Shown one piece after another: positions 2,568 to 25,110 of a stretch of DNA of 64,000 bases. The notes under the pieces are model-generated. The model worked only from the letters and a program-made list of their open reading frames with translations, was not told the DNA's origin and did no database searches. How positions within the stretch are numbered: the stretch's first letter is position 1; each line of letters starts with the position of its first letter. This DNA comes from Candidatus Saccharimonadales bacterium. GTDB taxonomy: Bacteria; Patescibacteriota; Saccharimonadia; Saccharimonadales; JBGSXW01. The DNA lies in the NCBI GenBank assembly GCA_041751215.1, contig JBGSXW010000002.1, forward strand, positions 67,123 through 131,122. Reading direction: 5' to 3'. The position numbers and the translations under genes are program-made.

Positions 2568-2695
2568 GATTTTGAACTCATTCTAGCTTGGGTGCAAGCA
2601 TGAGCGACTTTACTGTGGCCCACAAACAAGGGCCACTCCTTGCGACCGAACTTTCCGGCCAATGCCGGACACGGTTCGAATCCAAGTCTCAACAA

Positions 2696-2731
2696 TGCAA
2701 AAAGCCAGGCCAAATGACCTGACTCTTTGCA
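2696..2731 (-). terminator. stem-loop directly after the tRNA-Gln 3' end
   Basis: TGCAAAAAGCCAGG / CCTGACTCTTTGCA give 12 of 14 pairs with an 8-nt loop. The minus strand ends CUUUUUGCAUUGUUG. Confidence 0.45.
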
Positions 2732-2805
2732 TGGCTGGGGCGGCAGGATTCGAACCTACGATCCCGGGACCAAAACCCGGTGCCTTACCACTTGGCCACG
2801 CCCCA
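2732..2805 (-). tRNA. tRNA-Gln (UUG), CCA encoded
   Basis: Minus strand TGGGGCGTGGCCAAGTGGTAAGGCACCGGGTTTTGGTCCCGGGATCGTAGGTTCGAATCCTGCCGCCCCAGCCA. Cloverleaf folds by hand; anticodon loop is UUUUGGU. Confidence 0.9.
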
Positions 2806-19383: not shown

Positions 19384-19508
19384 ATTAACGCACCTTGTTT
19401 GTTTACCATAACACTCAGATACAACGTATCAGGTTTTTTATCAGTAGTCAAAGGAGTTATCCCCAGGTGGTTGTTTGCCTTAACTTCAGCAATCCAAAGG
19501 GACAATAA

Positions 19509-19547
19509 TAAAAACCCCCACAATCTGTACGATTGCAGGGGTTTTTC
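19509..19547 (-). terminator. rho-independent (bidirectional-looking) terminator after rplL
   Basis: AAAAACCCCCACAATC / GATTGCAGGGGTTTTT stem with a 5-nt loop. Confidence 0.7.
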
Positions 19548-19560
19548 GAGAGTACAGCGG

Positions 19561-19968: not shown

Positions 19969-20000
19969 AGTAGTCTCCTTAAATTCTTAATTATGGGAAC

Positions 20001-20154
20001 CTGTTTCCTAAGCCCATTTCAGCCTAAAATCATCCTAGTTGGCTGCAAATAGGCTCAAAACTCGTCAACGTATCTTTTAGATATGCTTTCTCGTTTTACG
20101 CCCTTTTCACTCAACAAGATCTGATTTTACTTCTGAAAGCGACTTAGGAAACAG
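20001..20154 (-). ncRNA. candidate structured RNA / repeat element, copy S2, inserted in the rplJ-rplL spacer (unclassified)
   Basis: 12-nt perfect terminal pairing CUGUUUCCUAAG/CUUAGGAAACAG, reaching 15 bp with one G-U on the minus strand. Homologous to 39115-39273. Confidence 0.5.
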
Positions 20155-20159
20155 ATTCT

Positions 20160-20693
20160 TTATGACTCAAGTTGCTCTTGGCGAGCATTGAGTACGTTAA
20201 CCATTCCACGCAAGTTGCCTGAGAGCACACCGACGAATCCAGATAGTGGAGCAGCGATTGTGCCAACAAGTTGAGCCCGTAGCTGATCCTTGGTAGGAAG
20301 CTCGGCCAGCCTCTTGATTTCATCGGCACTTAGTACGGTGCCGTCGGCTGCGATGGCCCCCACTAGGACGAGGTTCGGGTGTTCCTTGGCGAAGTTTGCC
20401 AGCACTTGAGCTGGAGCTACTTCGTCCTCATTGCCAAAAGCGAACATAAGTTGGCCTTTGAGCAGCGAGGTGTCGGAATCCTTAAGCGCGTCAACCTTAC
20501 TCATGGCCTTCATGAGCAGTCGGTTCTTTGTAACCTTAAGGCTGGTGGCGTTTTCGCGAGCTACTGCGCGGAGTGACTGTAGTTCTTTGACGCTTAACCC
20601 AGTGTATTGGGCTAATACAGTCATTTTTGATGATTCTAGCTTTGCAACCAAATCATCAATAACTGCGGTCTTGTCGTCTCGGCTTAATGCCAT
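20160..20693 (-). CDS. rplJ: 50S ribosomal protein L10
   Basis: 177 aa, upstream of rplL, L10-like sequence. Confidence 0.9.
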   Translation of the reverse strand: MALSRDDKTAVIDDLVAKLESSKMTVLAQYTGLSVKELQSLRAVARENATSLKVTKNRLLMKAMSKVDALKDSDTSLLKGQLMFAFGNEDEVAPAQVLANFAKEHPNLVLVGAIAADGTVLSADEIKRLAELPTKDQLRAQLVGTIAAPLSGFVGVLSGNLRGMVNVLNARQEQLES

Positions 20694-20891: not shown

Positions 20892-21272
20892 CTATTCAGG
20901 CAGTTCTAGCTCGCGTACCGGCAACCTAGCGGGCCGGTTTCGAGATACGTTTCTTGCGCGGCTTAATCTATCGGCGTACATCTGGGCAAAGTCTGCGCCG
21001 AGTCGTTTTTTGGCGGCTGTGATTACGGCCCAAGCGAACACGTCCGCCTGTTCATGCGCAAAGCGAGGGGCTTTAGTGCTAGCATGCGCGTAAAGGTTAT
21101 CGACGTCATCAGCGCGAGTGTTTAGGGCCTCGATTGACTCGATGGCGCTATCATTAGGACACTGTTCTAGTAGATAACTAGCTAAGTCTTTGACCATCAG
21201 GACTCGTTCTTCACTGTCCAAGCCGCCCACCTCGGCCACCGAACCGTAAACTGCTTCTTGTTCTGCTCCCAT
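20892..21272 (-). CDS. hypothetical acidic protein (126 aa)
   Basis: ORF track. SD AAGGAG lies before the ATG at 21272. Confidence 0.5.
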   Translation of the reverse strand: MGAEQEAVYGSVAEVGGLDSEERVLMVKDLASYLLEQCPNDSAIESIEALNTRADDVDNLYAHASTKAPRFAHEQADVFAWAVITAAKKRLGADFAQMYADRLSRARNVSRNRPARLPVRELELPE

Positions 21273-21302
21273 GAATTATCTCCTTTTCAAATAAGTGCAA
21301 TT

Positions 21303-21322
21303 AAAAAAGCCCCTTTTGGGGC
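21303..21322 (-). terminator. rho-independent terminator (minus strand)
   Basis: GCCCC-TTTT-GGGGC; the A6 run at 21303-21308 gives U6 on the minus strand. Confidence 0.6.
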
Positions 21323-21750
21323 CGTTTCGGTTGCTCTATTTTATGGCAATTACCGACAAGACCCCGCAGCGGGCTTAATAATGTCGATAATTATGATGTT
21401 GCCTCGATTTGCCATCGAATCGAGAATACACCTGTAAATACTATGCGTCAACGGTGACAGTGCCTGTAACACTGGCAAGGCCATGTGCTGTCTATTGAAG
21501 CTTCGCATTGATCTATACGCTGCTTCTTGTATCTGTTGAGTCAAGAACTTACTTGACACCGAGTATGATTATTTGGTAAAAAAGATGACGTTATGACGAT
21601 GCAATCCAGCATGCCAATTACAAAAGAGCTCCGCCACCTACTAGTGGTCGCTCTTAACGTGGCATAAGGATTGAGGTTCGTTAGACAATAACAAGAAGAT
21701 AAATAGCCGGGCCTCAATCAACCAAGAGCGCTCGGTTTTTCTATGCCTCT

Positions 21751-21827
21751 CTATGAATCATCTCTCGAAGATGGTTCATAGTAGGGCGAAAGTCCTAAGT
21801 CCTCTGTCGCACCTCGGTGCAGCAGAG
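21751..21827 (+). other. three consecutive stem-loops, the middle one with a GAAA tetraloop
   Basis: H1 21751-21781 (12 bp with bulges), H2 21782-21797 (TAGGGC-GAAA-GTCCTA), H3 21802-21827 (CTCTG..GCACC-TC-GGTGC..CAGAG). Confidence 0.4.
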
Positions 21828-21834
21828 TGTTACC

Positions 21835-22276
21835 AGGTAGGAGCAGACCACGATGCTAGGGGGCAAGAGTGGCCAACAAGCTTGAGCAAGAGATCATCGC
21901 CATCATCAAACGCAACAAAGGAAGCCTCGAGTGCAATGGCGATCCGATCACGCGCCTGATGGGCGCCACCAGAGCCATGCGCGCACAGCGCAAGCTCTGG
22001 AGAGAGGCGCTCGACTCGCTCACAGTGGGGAAGCGCGTAAGGCGTAGCTATAGCAAGGAGAAGCGGGCAACCATTCTCTCGCTGCGCTAGCACAAGGCCT
22101 CTCAGGCAACCGTTCCGGAGATGGTCAACGTAATTAGGCGAGACCGTCTTTAGTGCCTGAGCTTCGGGTGGACTGAGGAGAAAGCGACGAGCTTACCCAG
22201 CATCGTCGTGCGGATGAACGGGCAATCCCCACTCATTCGCCTCCTCGGCCCCCACCCGTAAATTCTGCTCCTACCT
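21835..22276. mobile_element. GC-rich segment bounded by a 12-bp perfect inverted repeat (decayed mobile-element candidate)
   Basis: AGGTAGGAGCAG 21835-21846 pairs with CTGCTCCTACCT 22265-22276. Hand counts give about 53-70% GC per 60-nt line, versus about 38% in the adjacent spacer. Confidence 0.4.
21869..22153 (+). pseudogene. HTH-like ORF interrupted by an in-frame TAG
   Basis: GTG 21869 after GGGGG. ...RRSYSKEKRATILSLR-TAG(22088)-HKASQATVPEMVNVIRRDRL-TAG(22151) resembles a transposase/resolvase-type HTH. Confidence 0.4.
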
Positions 22277-22279
22277 AAA

Positions 22280-22762
22280 CTACTCCCCAGTTTCTGATCT
22301 TATTACTTCCGCAATTTCAGCTATAGCTCTTAGTAAATCGCTTTCTTGTCTTTCTCTGGTATAAACCCAGTCTAGTACTGGCTCAGCGCCTACAATAATG
22401 CCGTCAAGCTTCAGGCTGTTGTCGGCTGAAGCCGTTTCGCTTAAAACCAGAGATGGACTAAGCAGCGATTCCTCAAACAACTCTGTTTTGGGTCTTTTTA
22501 CGGAGTCAAGCCGAATTCGGGTGGCGGGTCCGCTGGTGGGAACCGTCCACCAGCCTCCATCCCAATCCCAACTACCGAGCTCAACATCGTCAGGAAGAAC
22601 AAATAAAACAACTGCAGTGTCTTTAGTATCTACTGCTGGTGCCAGAATCAGCTTATTTGTAGCGCTAAGAAGTCTTTCGCTAACGATCTGTTCGGTAGCT
22701 TCCGGCGGTGGGACTTTCGGTTCGCCGGCATACCAGGGTTTTTGATCGGCATCGATAGTCAT
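22280..22762 (-). CDS. hypothetical protein (160 aa)
   Basis: ORF track. Lies 5 nt downstream of the Tmk-ThyX gene on the same strand. Confidence 0.5.
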   Translation of the reverse strand: MTIDADQKPWYAGEPKVPPPEATEQIVSERLLSATNKLILAPAVDTKDTAVVLFVLPDDVELGSWDWDGGWWTVPTSGPATRIRLDSVKRPKTELFEESLLSPSLVLSETASADNSLKLDGIIVGAEPVLDWVYTRERQESDLLRAIAEIAEVIRSETGE

Positions 22763-22767
22763 CTTAG

Positions 22768-25110
22768 CTAATTATTGGCGTTAGATTTATCGAGCTGCTT
22801 AAGTTTGTACTGGGTGTACTTTTCAGCCGCAAGACGAGTTAGTTCGTCGTCTTCGCCTTTATTTACAAAGATCATAGAATCAGCAATCAGCGGATGAACT
22901 TCGGCTAAAACATCGTGCATTTCTTTAACTAGCTTTCGGTAACCAGGGTGACCCTGAGGTGAAGTCCTTAGTTCATGAAAATGAAAGGCTTCGCGGGCAT
23001 TGTAGGCTATCTTCCAGCGCATTTTGTGTCCCAGCAAAGTGGCATACTGCGCTTCTAGGTGATAGCCGGCCGACTGCAATTGGCTATAAAGCTCGTAGCT
23101 GATGTCAAAGCAGGATTCAAACAAATCAGATAACCCCGCGTCCTCTACCAGTTTAGGCACTTCGTATCCGTATCGAGGGCTTAGCTCCTGCCAGTTTAAG
23201 TCGTTAACCATTCGATGGCGCTGTAGATCGCGGAAGATGCCGTAGTCGCAAACTAACTCCCATGAGTAATGGGCTTGCTCTAGCGCTCTCCCGGGCTTGT
23301 GCCGACGGTTAAGTCGCTCGCCCATATAGGCCTTAAAAGCATTGAGTTTTTCGTCGTATGTCCAGCTATCAACTTCTTGTTCGATTTGCTCGAGGGGCAG
23401 GCTTGAGTGATCAAACAGCATCTGCGGCAACAGGTCGAGTTCATTCTTAGGGTAGTGGCTAATTAGTTTTACAGCCTTAGTTTCAGGACTAAGACTTTGC
23501 GGCAGCTTGCTGTCGGCGAGCTGTTTCATTGTCTTGTTGGTGTTGGCGCGGTAAGCCACCCAAGCCCCCCCGCGGCCTGGCTTATCGGCTCGCTCTAGAA
23601 ATACCGGAATAATCTTTCGAGCTTCTTTTAGCAGCTGGTCGCCGGTGTCGCGAGCTTCTTGCAGCTCGTCGCTTTGCAGATGCATTATTAAGCTCTCCAG
23701 CGCCTGGCCAGAGGCAAATATACCCACAGTCGCCTTGGTTGCTACCGGTAGGACGTTTCGGATGGCGTCACAAGCCTGAGCCCTTGTTGCGCCCTTCCAG
23801 GCTCCGTCGCGCTCAGCCTCTGGGGTATTTGAGTTGTTGCGAACGTAGTCTGTCAGCTTGCGCACCATGGTTGAGTAGGTGTCAAAAATTTTGTCCATTG
23901 ATTCTTCGTAGACTCGAGCCGTGTCGGCATCGAGGTTTTTAGGCGTGAAGTATTTATAGTTACCTCTAGAATCCTTTTGATCGAAGAATATATAGCGCGT
24001 GGACTGCTCTAGGTAAGCAGCCAGTCGGCCCCACTCGAGCTTTTTGGTCAAGATGTTAGAAGCGTTCTCGACTACGAGATGCAGTCCAACCAGTTGCTGA
24101 ACCGAGTCATCGCCGTAAGCCGTAATGACGCGTTTCAGCAAACCTTCGTCCTTACCTTCGCCCTCGGCGAACTCGTCTAGAAGAGTTACGCGCATGTCAT
24201 CGCCTCGGCGACTCAACCTTGCCATAGCAGCAGCTATAGTGGCTGCCGAGAACTTATCAGTAAAGGCATACACGTCGCCGTCTAGGTCGGTCACGGCGTC
24301 TTTTAGCAGCTCACGGCCATTTGCCGTCATCTTGAACCCGCCGTTGTCGGCTTTTTCTACGTATTTCTTTACGGGCTTGGAGTTATGTTTTTTTTTAGCA
24401 TCGCTTTGGTTGCTCGGTCCTTTTGATTTGCCTTTTGATCGTTTTGGTAGCATTGGCTCCAACCTTTCCCATATCATGTTGCTAACTTTTTGTCGGCTCA
24501 GCTCGTTAGTGTCTTTAACGCCGCTGATCTGAACGAATCCTTTTGGAAATAACTGACACAACTCTTCATATACTTGAATCGAGCGTTTAATGTGGCTGCT
24601 GTCTTCTTGATGAATGTCTTTTTTGTCGTCATCGCGTTGTTGGTACCGCTTTTGGGCAATCTCAAAGGGAACCGTTAGGACTATATTAAGATCGGGCCGC
24701 GGGATGCCGAGGGTTTCAAATTCCAGATTGTCGAGCCAAGTAAAGTAGCCAAGACGTTCCTGCGCATTCTTAAACTTGGTGCCTTGGTGTGCCATGTTTG
24801 ACCCGACGTATCGATCGGCCACCACAACCTTGCCCTCGGCTAGCGCCGTCCGAATGTCCTTGGCGGCGTGGTATCGGTCGAGAGCAAAAAACAAGGACCC
24901 GGTGTAAGGGCTAACATCATCTGCTTGCCCGTACTTTCCGTCTAAATATTGACGGATAAAAAAAGAGGAATCTTCTGAGTAGCGCGGAAAGTCGATGGTA
25001 TAGACTTCTCGACCCTCGGCCCGCAAGCGGTCAATTAACAGCTTAGTCTGCGTCTCTTTGCCAGAGCCGTCTGAGCCTTCGATGACAATGAATATTCCTC
25101 TATCGGACAT
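22768..25110 (-). CDS. fusion protein: N-terminal thymidylate kinase plus C-terminal (tandem) ThyX-like flavin-dependent thymidylate synthase
   Basis: N-terminus FIVIEGSDGSGKETQ..DRY (Tmk). C-terminal ~530 aa carries LQRHRMVNDLNWQELSPRY (ThyX RHR..S.RY-type) plus an upstream degenerate half. Confidence 0.7.
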   Translation of the reverse strand: MSDRGIFIVIEGSDGSGKETQTKLLIDRLRAEGREVYTIDFPRYSEDSSFFIRQYLDGKYGQADDVSPYTGSLFFALDRYHAAKDIRTALAEGKVVVADRYVGSNMAHQGTKFKNAQERLGYFTWLDNLEFETLGIPRPDLNIVLTVPFEIAQKRYQQRDDDKKDIHQEDSSHIKRSIQVYEELCQLFPKGFVQISGVKDTNELSRQKVSNMIWERLEPMLPKRSKGKSKGPSNQSDAKKKHNSKPVKKYVEKADNGGFKMTANGRELLKDAVTDLDGDVYAFTDKFSAATIAAAMARLSRRGDDMRVTLLDEFAEGEGKDEGLLKRVITAYGDDSVQQLVGLHLVVENASNILTKKLEWGRLAAYLEQSTRYIFFDQKDSRGNYKYFTPKNLDADTARVYEESMDKIFDTYSTMVRKLTDYVRNNSNTPEAERDGAWKGATRAQACDAIRNVLPVATKATVGIFASGQALESLIMHLQSDELQEARDTGDQLLKEARKIIPVFLERADKPGRGGAWVAYRANTNKTMKQLADSKLPQSLSPETKAVKLISHYPKNELDLLPQMLFDHSSLPLEQIEQEVDSWTYDEKLNAFKAYMGERLNRRHKPGRALEQAHYSWELVCDYGIFRDLQRHRMVNDLNWQELSPRYGYEVPKLVEDAGLSDLFESCFDISYELYSQLQSAGYHLEAQYATLLGHKMRWKIAYNAREAFHFHELRTSPQGHPGYRKLVKEMHDVLAEVHPLIADSMIFVNKGEDDELTRLAAEKYTQYKLKQLDKSNANN

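Follow-up and report, generated by a model that had tools for sequence, protein, structure and literature searches.

A candidate self-clamped small-protein mRNA behind a putative attenuator leader between rplA and rplJ of a Saccharimonadales bacterium

Introduction

In the hok and aapA mRNAs, an anti-Shine-Dalgarno sequence located far downstream occludes the Shine-Dalgarno (SD) sequence through a 5'-3' long-distance interaction (PMC6733600; PMC5416894), and the full-length mRNA is translationally inert until its 3' end has been trimmed (PMC6733600; PMC5416894; PMC9841398). This 5'-3' SD/anti-SD interaction is described as characteristic of some type I toxin mRNAs (PMC6733600). A related arrangement is predicted here for a GC-rich block of 442 nt (21835-22276) in a 64,000-nt stretch of DNA from Candidatus Saccharimonadales bacterium (GenBank assembly GCA_041751215.1, contig JBGSXW010000002.1, positions 67,123 to 131,122 of the forward strand), which is called the window below. 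The block lies between rplA and rplJ, close to the gene for a fusion of thymidylate kinase and ThyX (Tmk-ThyX), and its edges are perfect inverted repeats. An earlier note on this DNA took the block for a decayed mobile element or a fragment of foreign, higher-GC DNA, with a structured RNA as the fallback. In the reading favored here, which we consider probable though with appreciable doubt, the block forms the main part of a self-clamped, structured mRNA on the plus strand, which encodes a 73-aa basic, helical protein and stands behind an attenuator leader.

The block has several features in common with hok/Sok of plasmid R1 and aapA/IsoA of Helicobacter pylori. It holds a small open reading frame (ORF) within a compact, highly structured mRNA, its SD sequence is sequestered in the predicted fold by a distal anti-SD near the other end of the unit, and no translation is expected from the fully folded RNA. 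In contrast to the hok and aapA loci, the protein encoded by the block is hydrophilic, basic in the window copy, and without a membrane segment, and the block and its counterparts in related genomes (together called modules) measure 360-650 nt and carry ORFs of up to 161 aa. Furthermore, no dedicated antisense RNA gene was found at the block, its predicted 3' arm may not be the RNA end and another gene often lies beyond this arm, and a terminator/antiterminator leader stands ahead of the module, a feature absent from those toxin loci.

The GC-Rich Block and Its Predicted Fold

The repeat that bounds the block is real and, at 13 nt, one nucleotide longer than the 12 bp first described, with AGGTAGGAGCAGA at 21835-21847 and its exact complement TCTGCTCCTACCT at 22264-22276 on either side of a 416-bp segment. 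The repeat by itself is not significant and proves nothing, as 33% of Markov shuffles of the window yield some 13-nt perfect inverted repeat within 600 nt (mean 0.6). Its weight comes instead from the coincidence of the arms with the edges of the block and from their recurrence in other genomes. The GC content of the block is 0.588, compared to a window mean of 0.477 (sd 0.027), and no other 442-nt stretch of the window is as GC-rich. The excess that the earlier note had counted by hand is thus borne out by the windowed computation that it proposed as a check.

The features of the predicted RNA from the first clamp arm onward are as follows.

21835-21847, plus strand: 5' clamp arm, holding the SD sequence AGGAG (21839-21843) and pairing with 22264-22276 in both the minimum-energy and the centroid fold
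21848-21851 with 21869-21872, plus strand: extension of the clamp helix (CCAC:GUGG), covering the GTG start
21853-21885, plus strand: ORF of 10 codons, its ATG at the canonical distance from AGGAG and shifted by one base from the frame of the 73-aa ORF
21869-22090, plus strand: 73-aa ORF, with a GTG start 5 nt after GGGGG (G5, 21859-21863) and a TAG stop at 22088-22090
22101-22161, plus strand: hairpin 1 of the 3' untranslated region (3'UTR), in which CTCAGGC (22101-22107) pairs with GCCTGAG (22155-22161)
22165-22258, plus strand: multi-helix domain of the 3'UTR, with a closing stem (GGGTGGA..GAGGAG / CTCCTC..CCCACCC) around two hairpins and a local z-score of -5.6
22264-22276, plus strand: 3' clamp arm, holding the anti-SD CTCCT (22268-22272) and ending 3 nt short of the stop codon of p160, a convergent gene described below

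The plus strand of the block folds with a minimum free energy of -202 kcal/mol, compared to -157 ± 6 for dinucleotide shuffles (z -7.0), and the whole fold is closed by the terminal repeat. The minus strand of the block reaches z -5.1. Over all of 21600-22280, windows of 120 nt show more structure on the plus strand than on the minus strand, and the z-score of 21560-22300 folded as a whole is -7.9. These results support the structured-RNA fallback of the earlier note, an alternative that is right but incomplete. The two internal pairings listed there both exist, with the correction that CTCAGGC begins at 22101 and not at 22091.

The fold has no counterpart in the RNA collections that were searched. 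Among the 4227 families of Rfam 15, a search of which had been proposed as a check, none reached its gathering threshold in the window or in six related loci, and at E<=10 only chance-level matches appeared within 21200-22400. ARAGORN finds neither a tRNA nor a tmRNA in the block. Retrons, diversity-generating retroelements (DGR), OMEGA or other guide RNAs, group I and II introns, and RNase P or tmRNA were considered and dropped, there being no reverse transcriptase, nuclease, host-gene context or Rfam signal for them.

Equivalent Modules in Related Genomes

The key to the proposed reading is comparative. A scan of one genome per species gave 80 Saccharimonadales loci with a Tmk-ThyX fusion (61-67% identity), and 82 related loci, numbered here with the prefix L, were used for the blastn, nhmmer and leader searches. 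The block sequence itself is absent from these 82 loci by both blastn and nhmmer. The closest relative that could be obtained, L081 (Tmk-ThyX identity of 74%), nevertheless has a GC-rich block of its own (0.62 vs 0.52) at the same position, directly after a homologue of p160. This block differs in sequence, has another 13-nt perfect repeat (AGAACAGGAAAGG) at its ends, and reaches a z-score of -6.2 to -7.4 on the equivalent strand.

The same design is present in eight other Saccharimonadales genomes (L081, L041, L012, L042, L001, L058, L002 and L073). All nine modules, the window included, lie downstream of and antisense to Tmk-ThyX, and the eight others are unrelated in sequence to the window block and identical to it in build. 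Each one consists of a 5' arm with an SD motif (GGAGG, AGGAG or GGGGG), a gap of 2-10 nt leading to an ATG or GTG, an ORF of 57-161 codons, a 3'UTR of 139-213 nt in which a G-rich/C-rich stem closes around two or three hairpins, and a 3' arm that is complementary to the SD arm. The arms vary from genome to genome (the window repeat, AGGGGGAAGAATA, AATCTGGAGGAG, TGGAGGAATAG and others) and keep their complementarity. Arms that differ in sequence, remain complementary and bear the SD motif are the signature of pairing within an RNA and not of transposase binding sites. In all seven modules that were measured, the GC content exceeds that of the genome by 2.5 to 11 points, and the z-scores range from -5 to -8. 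The earlier note had named conservation in syntenic position across relatives as a result that would speak against a mobile or foreign element, and such conservation is found at the level of architecture. When the 3'UTRs of six modules were submitted to MAFFT and RNAalifold, they could not be aligned and gave no consensus; their likeness is architectural only, except within the group of L041, L012, L042 and L058.

A control scan tested how specific the design is, asking for each ORF between 40 and 220 codons in length whether an upstream segment with an SD motif can pair (score >=11) with sequence downstream of that ORF's 3' end. In the window, the block is the only match. The same scan returned four matches in 146 kb of variable regions, all of them sister modules, and eight matches in 752 kb outside the variable regions, whose arms all lack an SD motif.

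Protein-level evidence comes from the ORFs of L041 and L012. Between these two sequences, 12, 13 and 35 substitutions fall at codon positions 1, 2 and 3, respectively, the codon changes comprise 24 synonymous and 20 non-synonymous ones, and the stop is conserved, a pattern that indicates purifying selection on the protein of this sister pair. The nine small proteins include several that are strongly basic and three that are acidic, and a hydrophobic segment is absent from each of them (maximum 19-aa hydropathy below 0.7).

Coding Status of the 73-aa ORF

As first described, a GTG at 21869 preceded by a run of G opens an ORF in the block. This ORF extends over 73 codons to the TAG at 22088-22090 and was also called by a gene caller (P0123). 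Its product is basic (isoelectric point 11.2) and hydrophilic (GRAVY -0.61), with a maximum 19-aa hydropathy of 0.06. The AlphaFold2 model from the single sequence contains two helices (4-21 and 26-72) at a pLDDT of 72.6 and is too generic for a fold search. The GC content at codon positions 1, 2 and 3 is 0.55, 0.47 and 0.78. By analogy with the sister modules, the ORF is probably translated.

The ORF had been described as interrupted by its TAG within a helix-turn-helix (HTH) resembling transposase OrfA, and neither part of this description is confirmed. Searches of Pfam and NCBIfam (E<=10), with and without read-through of the TAG, gave no HTH or transposase match, and PHROGs and PADLOC gave none either. 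The same four collections also returned nothing for the 87-aa ORF on the opposite strand, for the neighboring genes p160 and p126, or for the small proteins and partner proteins of the sister modules. We take the TAG to be the genuine stop of the 73-aa ORF because the sequence that follows lies in 3'UTR hairpins with counterparts in every sister module. This 3'UTR is 186 nt long and matches the 3'UTRs of the eight sister modules in length and fold. A profile built from five of the small proteins matched only its five inputs among 5.8 billion proteins. Results from these searches suggest that the small proteins are lineage-specific ORFans, and they give no support for common ancestry of the nine ORFs.

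The start of the ORF has one odd feature. The G5 run lies between the ATG at 21853 and the GTG at 21869, and one G fewer (G4) would fuse this ATG to the long ORF to give a protein of 78 aa. The offset could reflect a real upstream ORF that overlaps the GTG start, a homopolymer error in sequencing or assembly, or a real frameshift. The nearest relative, L081, likewise has a GTG start after a G5 run, which makes the GTG start plausible in the window.

The Putative Upstream Promoter and Attenuator Leader

The sequence ahead of the block contains a promoter-like site, a leader and three hairpins.

21553-21582, plus strand: putative sigma-70-type promoter, with TTGACA (21553-21558), an 18-nt spacer and TAAAAA (21577-21582)
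21589-21747, plus strand: attenuator (riboswitch-like) leader, a conserved structured unit
21594-21683, plus strand: long imperfect hairpin of the leader fold
21668-21676 with 21712-21719, plus strand: antiterminator helix of the leader (-16.4 kcal/mol)
21706-21736, plus strand: intrinsic terminator of the leader (-14.8 kcal/mol), followed by a T-run at 21737-21741
21751-21781, plus strand: hairpin A of the 5'UTR, with a 13-bp stem
21782-21797, plus strand: hairpin B of the 5'UTR, with a GAAA tetraloop
21802-21827, plus strand: hairpin C of the 5'UTR, lying like A and B between the leader terminator and the clamp

A predicted promoter, a leader of about 150 nt and two or three 5'UTR hairpins stand on the same strand ahead of all nine modules. 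In each of the seven modules that were aligned, a TTGACA-17/18-TACAxT box is found at the same place upstream. A generic promoter scan did not call the site in the window because its -10 element lacks the final T. The stretch that contains the 5'UTR hairpins (21751-21827) has a local z-score of -5.5 on the plus strand, compared to -1.6 to -4.0 on the minus strand, and the hairpins have counterparts in sister loci, including a conserved ATGGGAGCACCGCTTCC box.

The antiterminator and the terminator of the window leader are mutually exclusive. The antiterminator helix, in which the 5' half of the terminator pairs with the strand immediately 3' of the hairpin domain, also emerges independently from RNAalifold and shows GC-to-AU swaps. 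With nhmmer, the leader is found at full length in 21 of the 82 loci, always on the strand antisense to Tmk-ThyX and, where the limits of the variable region could be set, within that region. A covariance model gives 26 matches in the 82 loci, nearly all of which, and every strong one of which, are antisense to Tmk-ThyX. Copies in sister loci include L022:8755-8916(-), L066:8855-9016(-) and L001:9338-9503(-). In the alignment of 26 sequences, 84% of cells are paired, compared to 27-44% when the partners are slid, and compensatory changes occur in 24 of 30 pairs with a score that none of 500 shuffles reaches; the alignment was fitted to the model, which biases these figures in the model's favor. 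The window leader also has blastn similarity to L081. A metagenome scan with the motif GCCGN5ACGGN4GTGCTCGTGRTKG, which is too GC-rich, returned 20 matches, all of them chance occurrences in high-GC coding DNA.

Three arrangements occur downstream of the leader, which is followed by a clamp module and then an acidic ORF, by an acidic ORF of 110-160 aa directly, or by nothing before the Tmk-ThyX stop. Judged from these comparisons, the leader is the conserved part of the unit and the cargo is the variable part. Similar to transcription-attenuating riboswitches, the window leader combines a promoter, a covarying hairpin domain, a strand that can switch between this domain and the 5' half of the terminator, and a T-run. 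In contrast to those riboswitches, it is rod-like and has no multi-helix junction, it matches none of the Rfam families, it precedes hypervariable ORFans instead of a coherent regulon, and its direction is always towards the Tmk-ThyX 3' end. We present the leader as a candidate new riboswitch or attenuator. A bolder proposal, to which we give a rather small chance, is that the leader is a new Saccharimonadales-specific riboswitch class or a metabolite- or protein-sensing attenuator, always convergent to Tmk-ThyX, that would gate antisense transcription into Tmk-ThyX and fast-evolving small proteins, with the block serving as a self-locking toxin-like or effector mRNA released only in the 'on' condition of the leader.

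Proposed Mechanism

The features described above suggest the following mechanism. Transcription would start at the sigma-70 promoter near 21553-21582, and the choice between terminator and antiterminator in the leader would gate it, such that read-through transcripts alone reach the module. The 3' arm, made approximately 420 nt after the SD arm, would then pair with the latter to form a long-distance helix of 13-17 bp, in which the CCAC/GUGG extension adds the GTG start to the buried SD sequence. The finished RNA would be closed, compact, GC-rich, stable and translationally silent. Translation would be possible only in a co-transcriptional window or after the 3' arm has been removed or opened. 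Antisense read-through from the operon of Tmk-ThyX and p160 may provide a second layer of control. The GC excess of the block, which is located mostly at third (synonymous) codon positions, is attributed to the need for stable helices.

Evaluation of the Reading and Its Alternatives

Several observations weigh against the proposed reading. A length of 73 codons is unremarkable at the composition of the block (p ~0.08), and an ORF of 87 codons is present on the opposite strand. In a phmmer search against 1.84 billion representatives, the 73-aa sequence found itself and one repetitive protein of 690 aa. The long ORF is not in frame with the ATG that has the canonical SD spacing, and the copy in the window could therefore be damaged. 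The window leader matches its family model weakly (19.4 bits, E=0.0045 over 2 kb), and the ORF and leader of the window are the most divergent members of the set. A 13-nt repeat taken alone is not rare. In addition, the sister arms were found by searching for complementarity, such that their covariation is partly selected for, although independent support for the pairing comes from the control ORFs, which lack such SD pairings. No terminator follows the 3' arm and six sister loci have another gene next on the same strand, and the 3' arm may therefore not be the 3' end of the RNA, unlike in hok and aapA. Finally, the promoter, the strand and the RNA ends are predictions.

These same observations bear on the alternatives. 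If the ORF were incidental or decayed, the block would be a purely non-coding structured RNA, which could be a large RNA with a terminal closing helix or else the long, structured 3' portion of the transcript that begins with the leader. The very strong fold, the insignificant ORF length with its longer antisense rival, the lack of a homologue for the window ORF and the out-of-frame ATG would all fit this explanation, and long intergenic regions rich in GC are known to mark structured non-coding RNAs (PMC8723152, PMC6429828). The block resembles the GC-rich RNAs that emerge from screens by GC content and length (DIMPL) in being unusually GC-rich, long, 'intergenic' and strongly folded, and it differs from them in that its RNA appears to carry a translated small ORF. 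This alternative is judged unlikely given that the ORF of L041 and L012 has a coding-type bias across codon positions, the ORF starts 2-10 nt after the SD-bearing arm in nine of nine modules, GC3>GC1>GC2 holds in the frame of the window ORF, and no Rfam family matches. A lower chance still is given to a type I toxin-antitoxin system, in which the mRNA of a toxic small protein would be locked by the clamp, activated by 3' trimming and neutralized by an antisense RNA (a small RNA or convergent read-through). The occlusion of the SD sequence typical of such toxin mRNAs (PMC6733600) is present in the prediction as a 13-bp perfect helix between the AGGAG and CTCCT arms, the mRNA is compact and highly structured, the module sits in a hypervariable locus, and an antisense RNA is plausible, since no terminator separates the convergent operon from the block. 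The proteins, however, do not look like the small hydrophobic toxins, which are usually shorter than 60 aa. The window protein has 73 aa and others reach 161 aa, three of the nine are acidic, and all nine are without a hydrophobic segment. Furthermore, no antisense promoter-like site was found on the minus strand inside the block, leaving read-through from the p160 operon as the only possible source, PADLOC and Pfam return nothing, and the same transcript often continues into a second gene.

In fimS-type switches, perfect inverted repeats surround a segment of block-like geometry. As an inverton, the block would use its 13-bp repeats as recombination sites, and a flip would place the ORF behind either the leader or the convergent operon, with the identical arms supplying the same SD sequence in both orientations. 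The likeness consists of short perfect inverted repeats around a segment of a few hundred base pairs (416 bp) beside genes. No recombinase was found among the annotated neighbors, however, and there is no orientation polymorphism, as nine of nine modules share one orientation relative to the leader, a result repeated in ten of ten independent assemblies of the L002-type species (3 single-nucleotide differences in 661 nt). The repeats always overlap the SD sequence and enclose a structured coding RNA, neither of which an inverton requires. The block is probably not an inverton, and we give this explanation hardly any weight. Equally little weight is given to the decayed remnant of a miniature inverted-repeat transposable element (MITE) or insertion sequence (IS), or a horizontally acquired high-GC fragment. 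The terminal inverted repeat, small size, intergenic site, GC excess and high GC3 of the block recall such elements, its site is in a hypervariable, ORFan-filled region, and loci without a module have the acidic gene directly after the leader, such that the module looks inserted. On the other hand, the block is single-copy, with no second copy of block or repeat in the window by blastn or nhmmer. No target-site duplication flanks the repeat ends (GTGTTACC and AAACTACT), no transposase or HTH signal was found, blastn of 21700-22300 against phage and plasmid collections gave no match, and neither did the search of protein representatives. The repeat sequence is not conserved among the sister modules, and module-specific conserved 5'UTR hairpins lie outside the repeats, which argues that the repeats are not the ends of an inserted unit. 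The idea of a decayed mobile element with a broken HTH gene is wrong in our assessment and already largely refuted. A foreign origin, for which an actinobacterial host had been thought conceivable, is not demonstrable, given that no homologue was found anywhere searched and that the GC enrichment is common to the module family. The self-clamped mRNA remains the preferred reading.

Genomic Context and the Hypervariable Region

The genes around the block are all on the minus strand.

20160-20693, minus strand: rplJ, preceded by the L10 leader and followed by rplL
20892-21272, minus strand: p126, an ORFan that adjoins the 1-kb gap
21323-21298, minus strand: strong intrinsic terminator
22280-22762, minus strand: p160, an acidic ORFan (isoelectric point 4.3), convergent to the block
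22768-25110, minus strand: Tmk-ThyX fusion (thymidylate kinase-ThyX) of 780 aa
26686-27681, minus strand: rplA

Genes for a dNMP kinase and dCTP deaminase (dcd), also on the minus strand, lie between rplA and Tmk-ThyX. Two context features of the earlier note, the ORF-poor gap (21273-22279) and the minus-strand terminator within it, are confirmed, with no long ORF in the gap. The placement of the block between rplA and rplJ is likewise correct, but the genes between them had been called an insert. The order rplA-(dNMPk)-dcd-TmkThyX-[0.3-5.5 kb variable]-rplJ-rplL is common to more than 80 Saccharimonadales loci, which argues that the nucleotide-metabolism genes represent ancestral synteny and not a local insertion. 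The hypervariable part is confined to the stretch between Tmk-ThyX and rplJ. Exact look-ups of p160, Tmk-ThyX and p126 matched the source contig alone, indicating that the collections searched hold no strain-level relatives. A search of 5.8 billion proteins with p160 found only itself, while locus L081 carries a homologue that is 32% identical. No terminator lies between the p160 stop and the block, and none precedes the one at 21323-21298. Consequently, the Tmk-ThyX-p160 operon probably reads antisense through the whole plus-strand unit to this terminator.

The region between Tmk-ThyX and rplJ, examined in 65 loci, is a hotspot of fast-evolving, mostly acidic ORFans of 70-185 aa, and its length ranges from 0.3 kb in L062 to 5.5 kb in L015. 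These ORFans, among them p160 and p126 of the window, form a few weakly related groups without a match in Pfam, PHROGs or PADLOC. The Tmk-ThyX fusion itself has 3667 relatives at E<=1e-100 and is conserved between rplA and rplJ across the Saccharimonadales. In one genome the fusion is triple (Tmk-Dcd-ThyX, 1024 aa; L082:4810-7884), and the Tmk part shows weak matches to the PADLOC candidate-defence models PDC-M51B and VakA. The L1 protein encoded by rplA has 331 aa, in which the Pfam L1 domain covers residues 137-325 and leaves an N-terminal extension of about 135 aa; the called genes in L081 and L082 are of similar length (328 and 325 aa).

Other parts of the window are also structured. On the minus strand, 21298-21451 contains a promoter-like site (21451-21423), a hairpin with an 11-bp stem (AATTATCGACA...TGTCGGTAATT) and the terminator at 21323-21298, which is only about 25 nt ahead of the p126 start. 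The sequence at 21299-21417 is 73% identical to L081:12327-12443, which is located upstream of an unrelated 152-aa gene. This region may be a second attenuator, or an operon terminator combined with a p126 leader. A z-score scan of the whole window, which is noisy with 12 shuffles per window, gave z ~-11 for the rplJ-rplL intergenic region (19969-20159, minus strand), which also contains a 12-nt perfect inverted repeat (20001-20012 / 20143-20154). The intergenic region between rplL and p170 (19384-19560, minus strand) is unusually structured (z ~-6.9), and 2601-2800 (both strands), which adjoins a tRNA-Gln gene, reaches z ~-13 on the plus strand, far stronger than would be expected of a tRNA alone.

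Significance

The Saccharibacteria/Patescibacteria have tiny genomes, and their gene regulation is almost uncharted. A recent perspective names riboswitches in these bacteria only as tools that are still to be engineered (PMC11665869). The locus described here offers a conserved attenuator RNA that is supported by covariation and has no Rfam counterpart, together with a repeatedly used means of carrying small, lineage-specific proteins on mRNAs that are predicted to hide their own ribosome-binding site by end-to-end pairing, a strategy tied until now to type I toxins. The principle of an SD/anti-SD clamp is already known; the design of the clamp module and its attenuator leader in the Saccharimonadales is previously undescribed. 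The locus also illustrates that terminal inverted repeats around a GC-rich island do not by themselves make it mobile DNA. If the clamp and the leader work as proposed, they would amount to a regulatory circuit in an episymbiotic lineage that can be tested directly, and would open a way into a hypervariable gene site with a possible role in interactions with hosts or phages.

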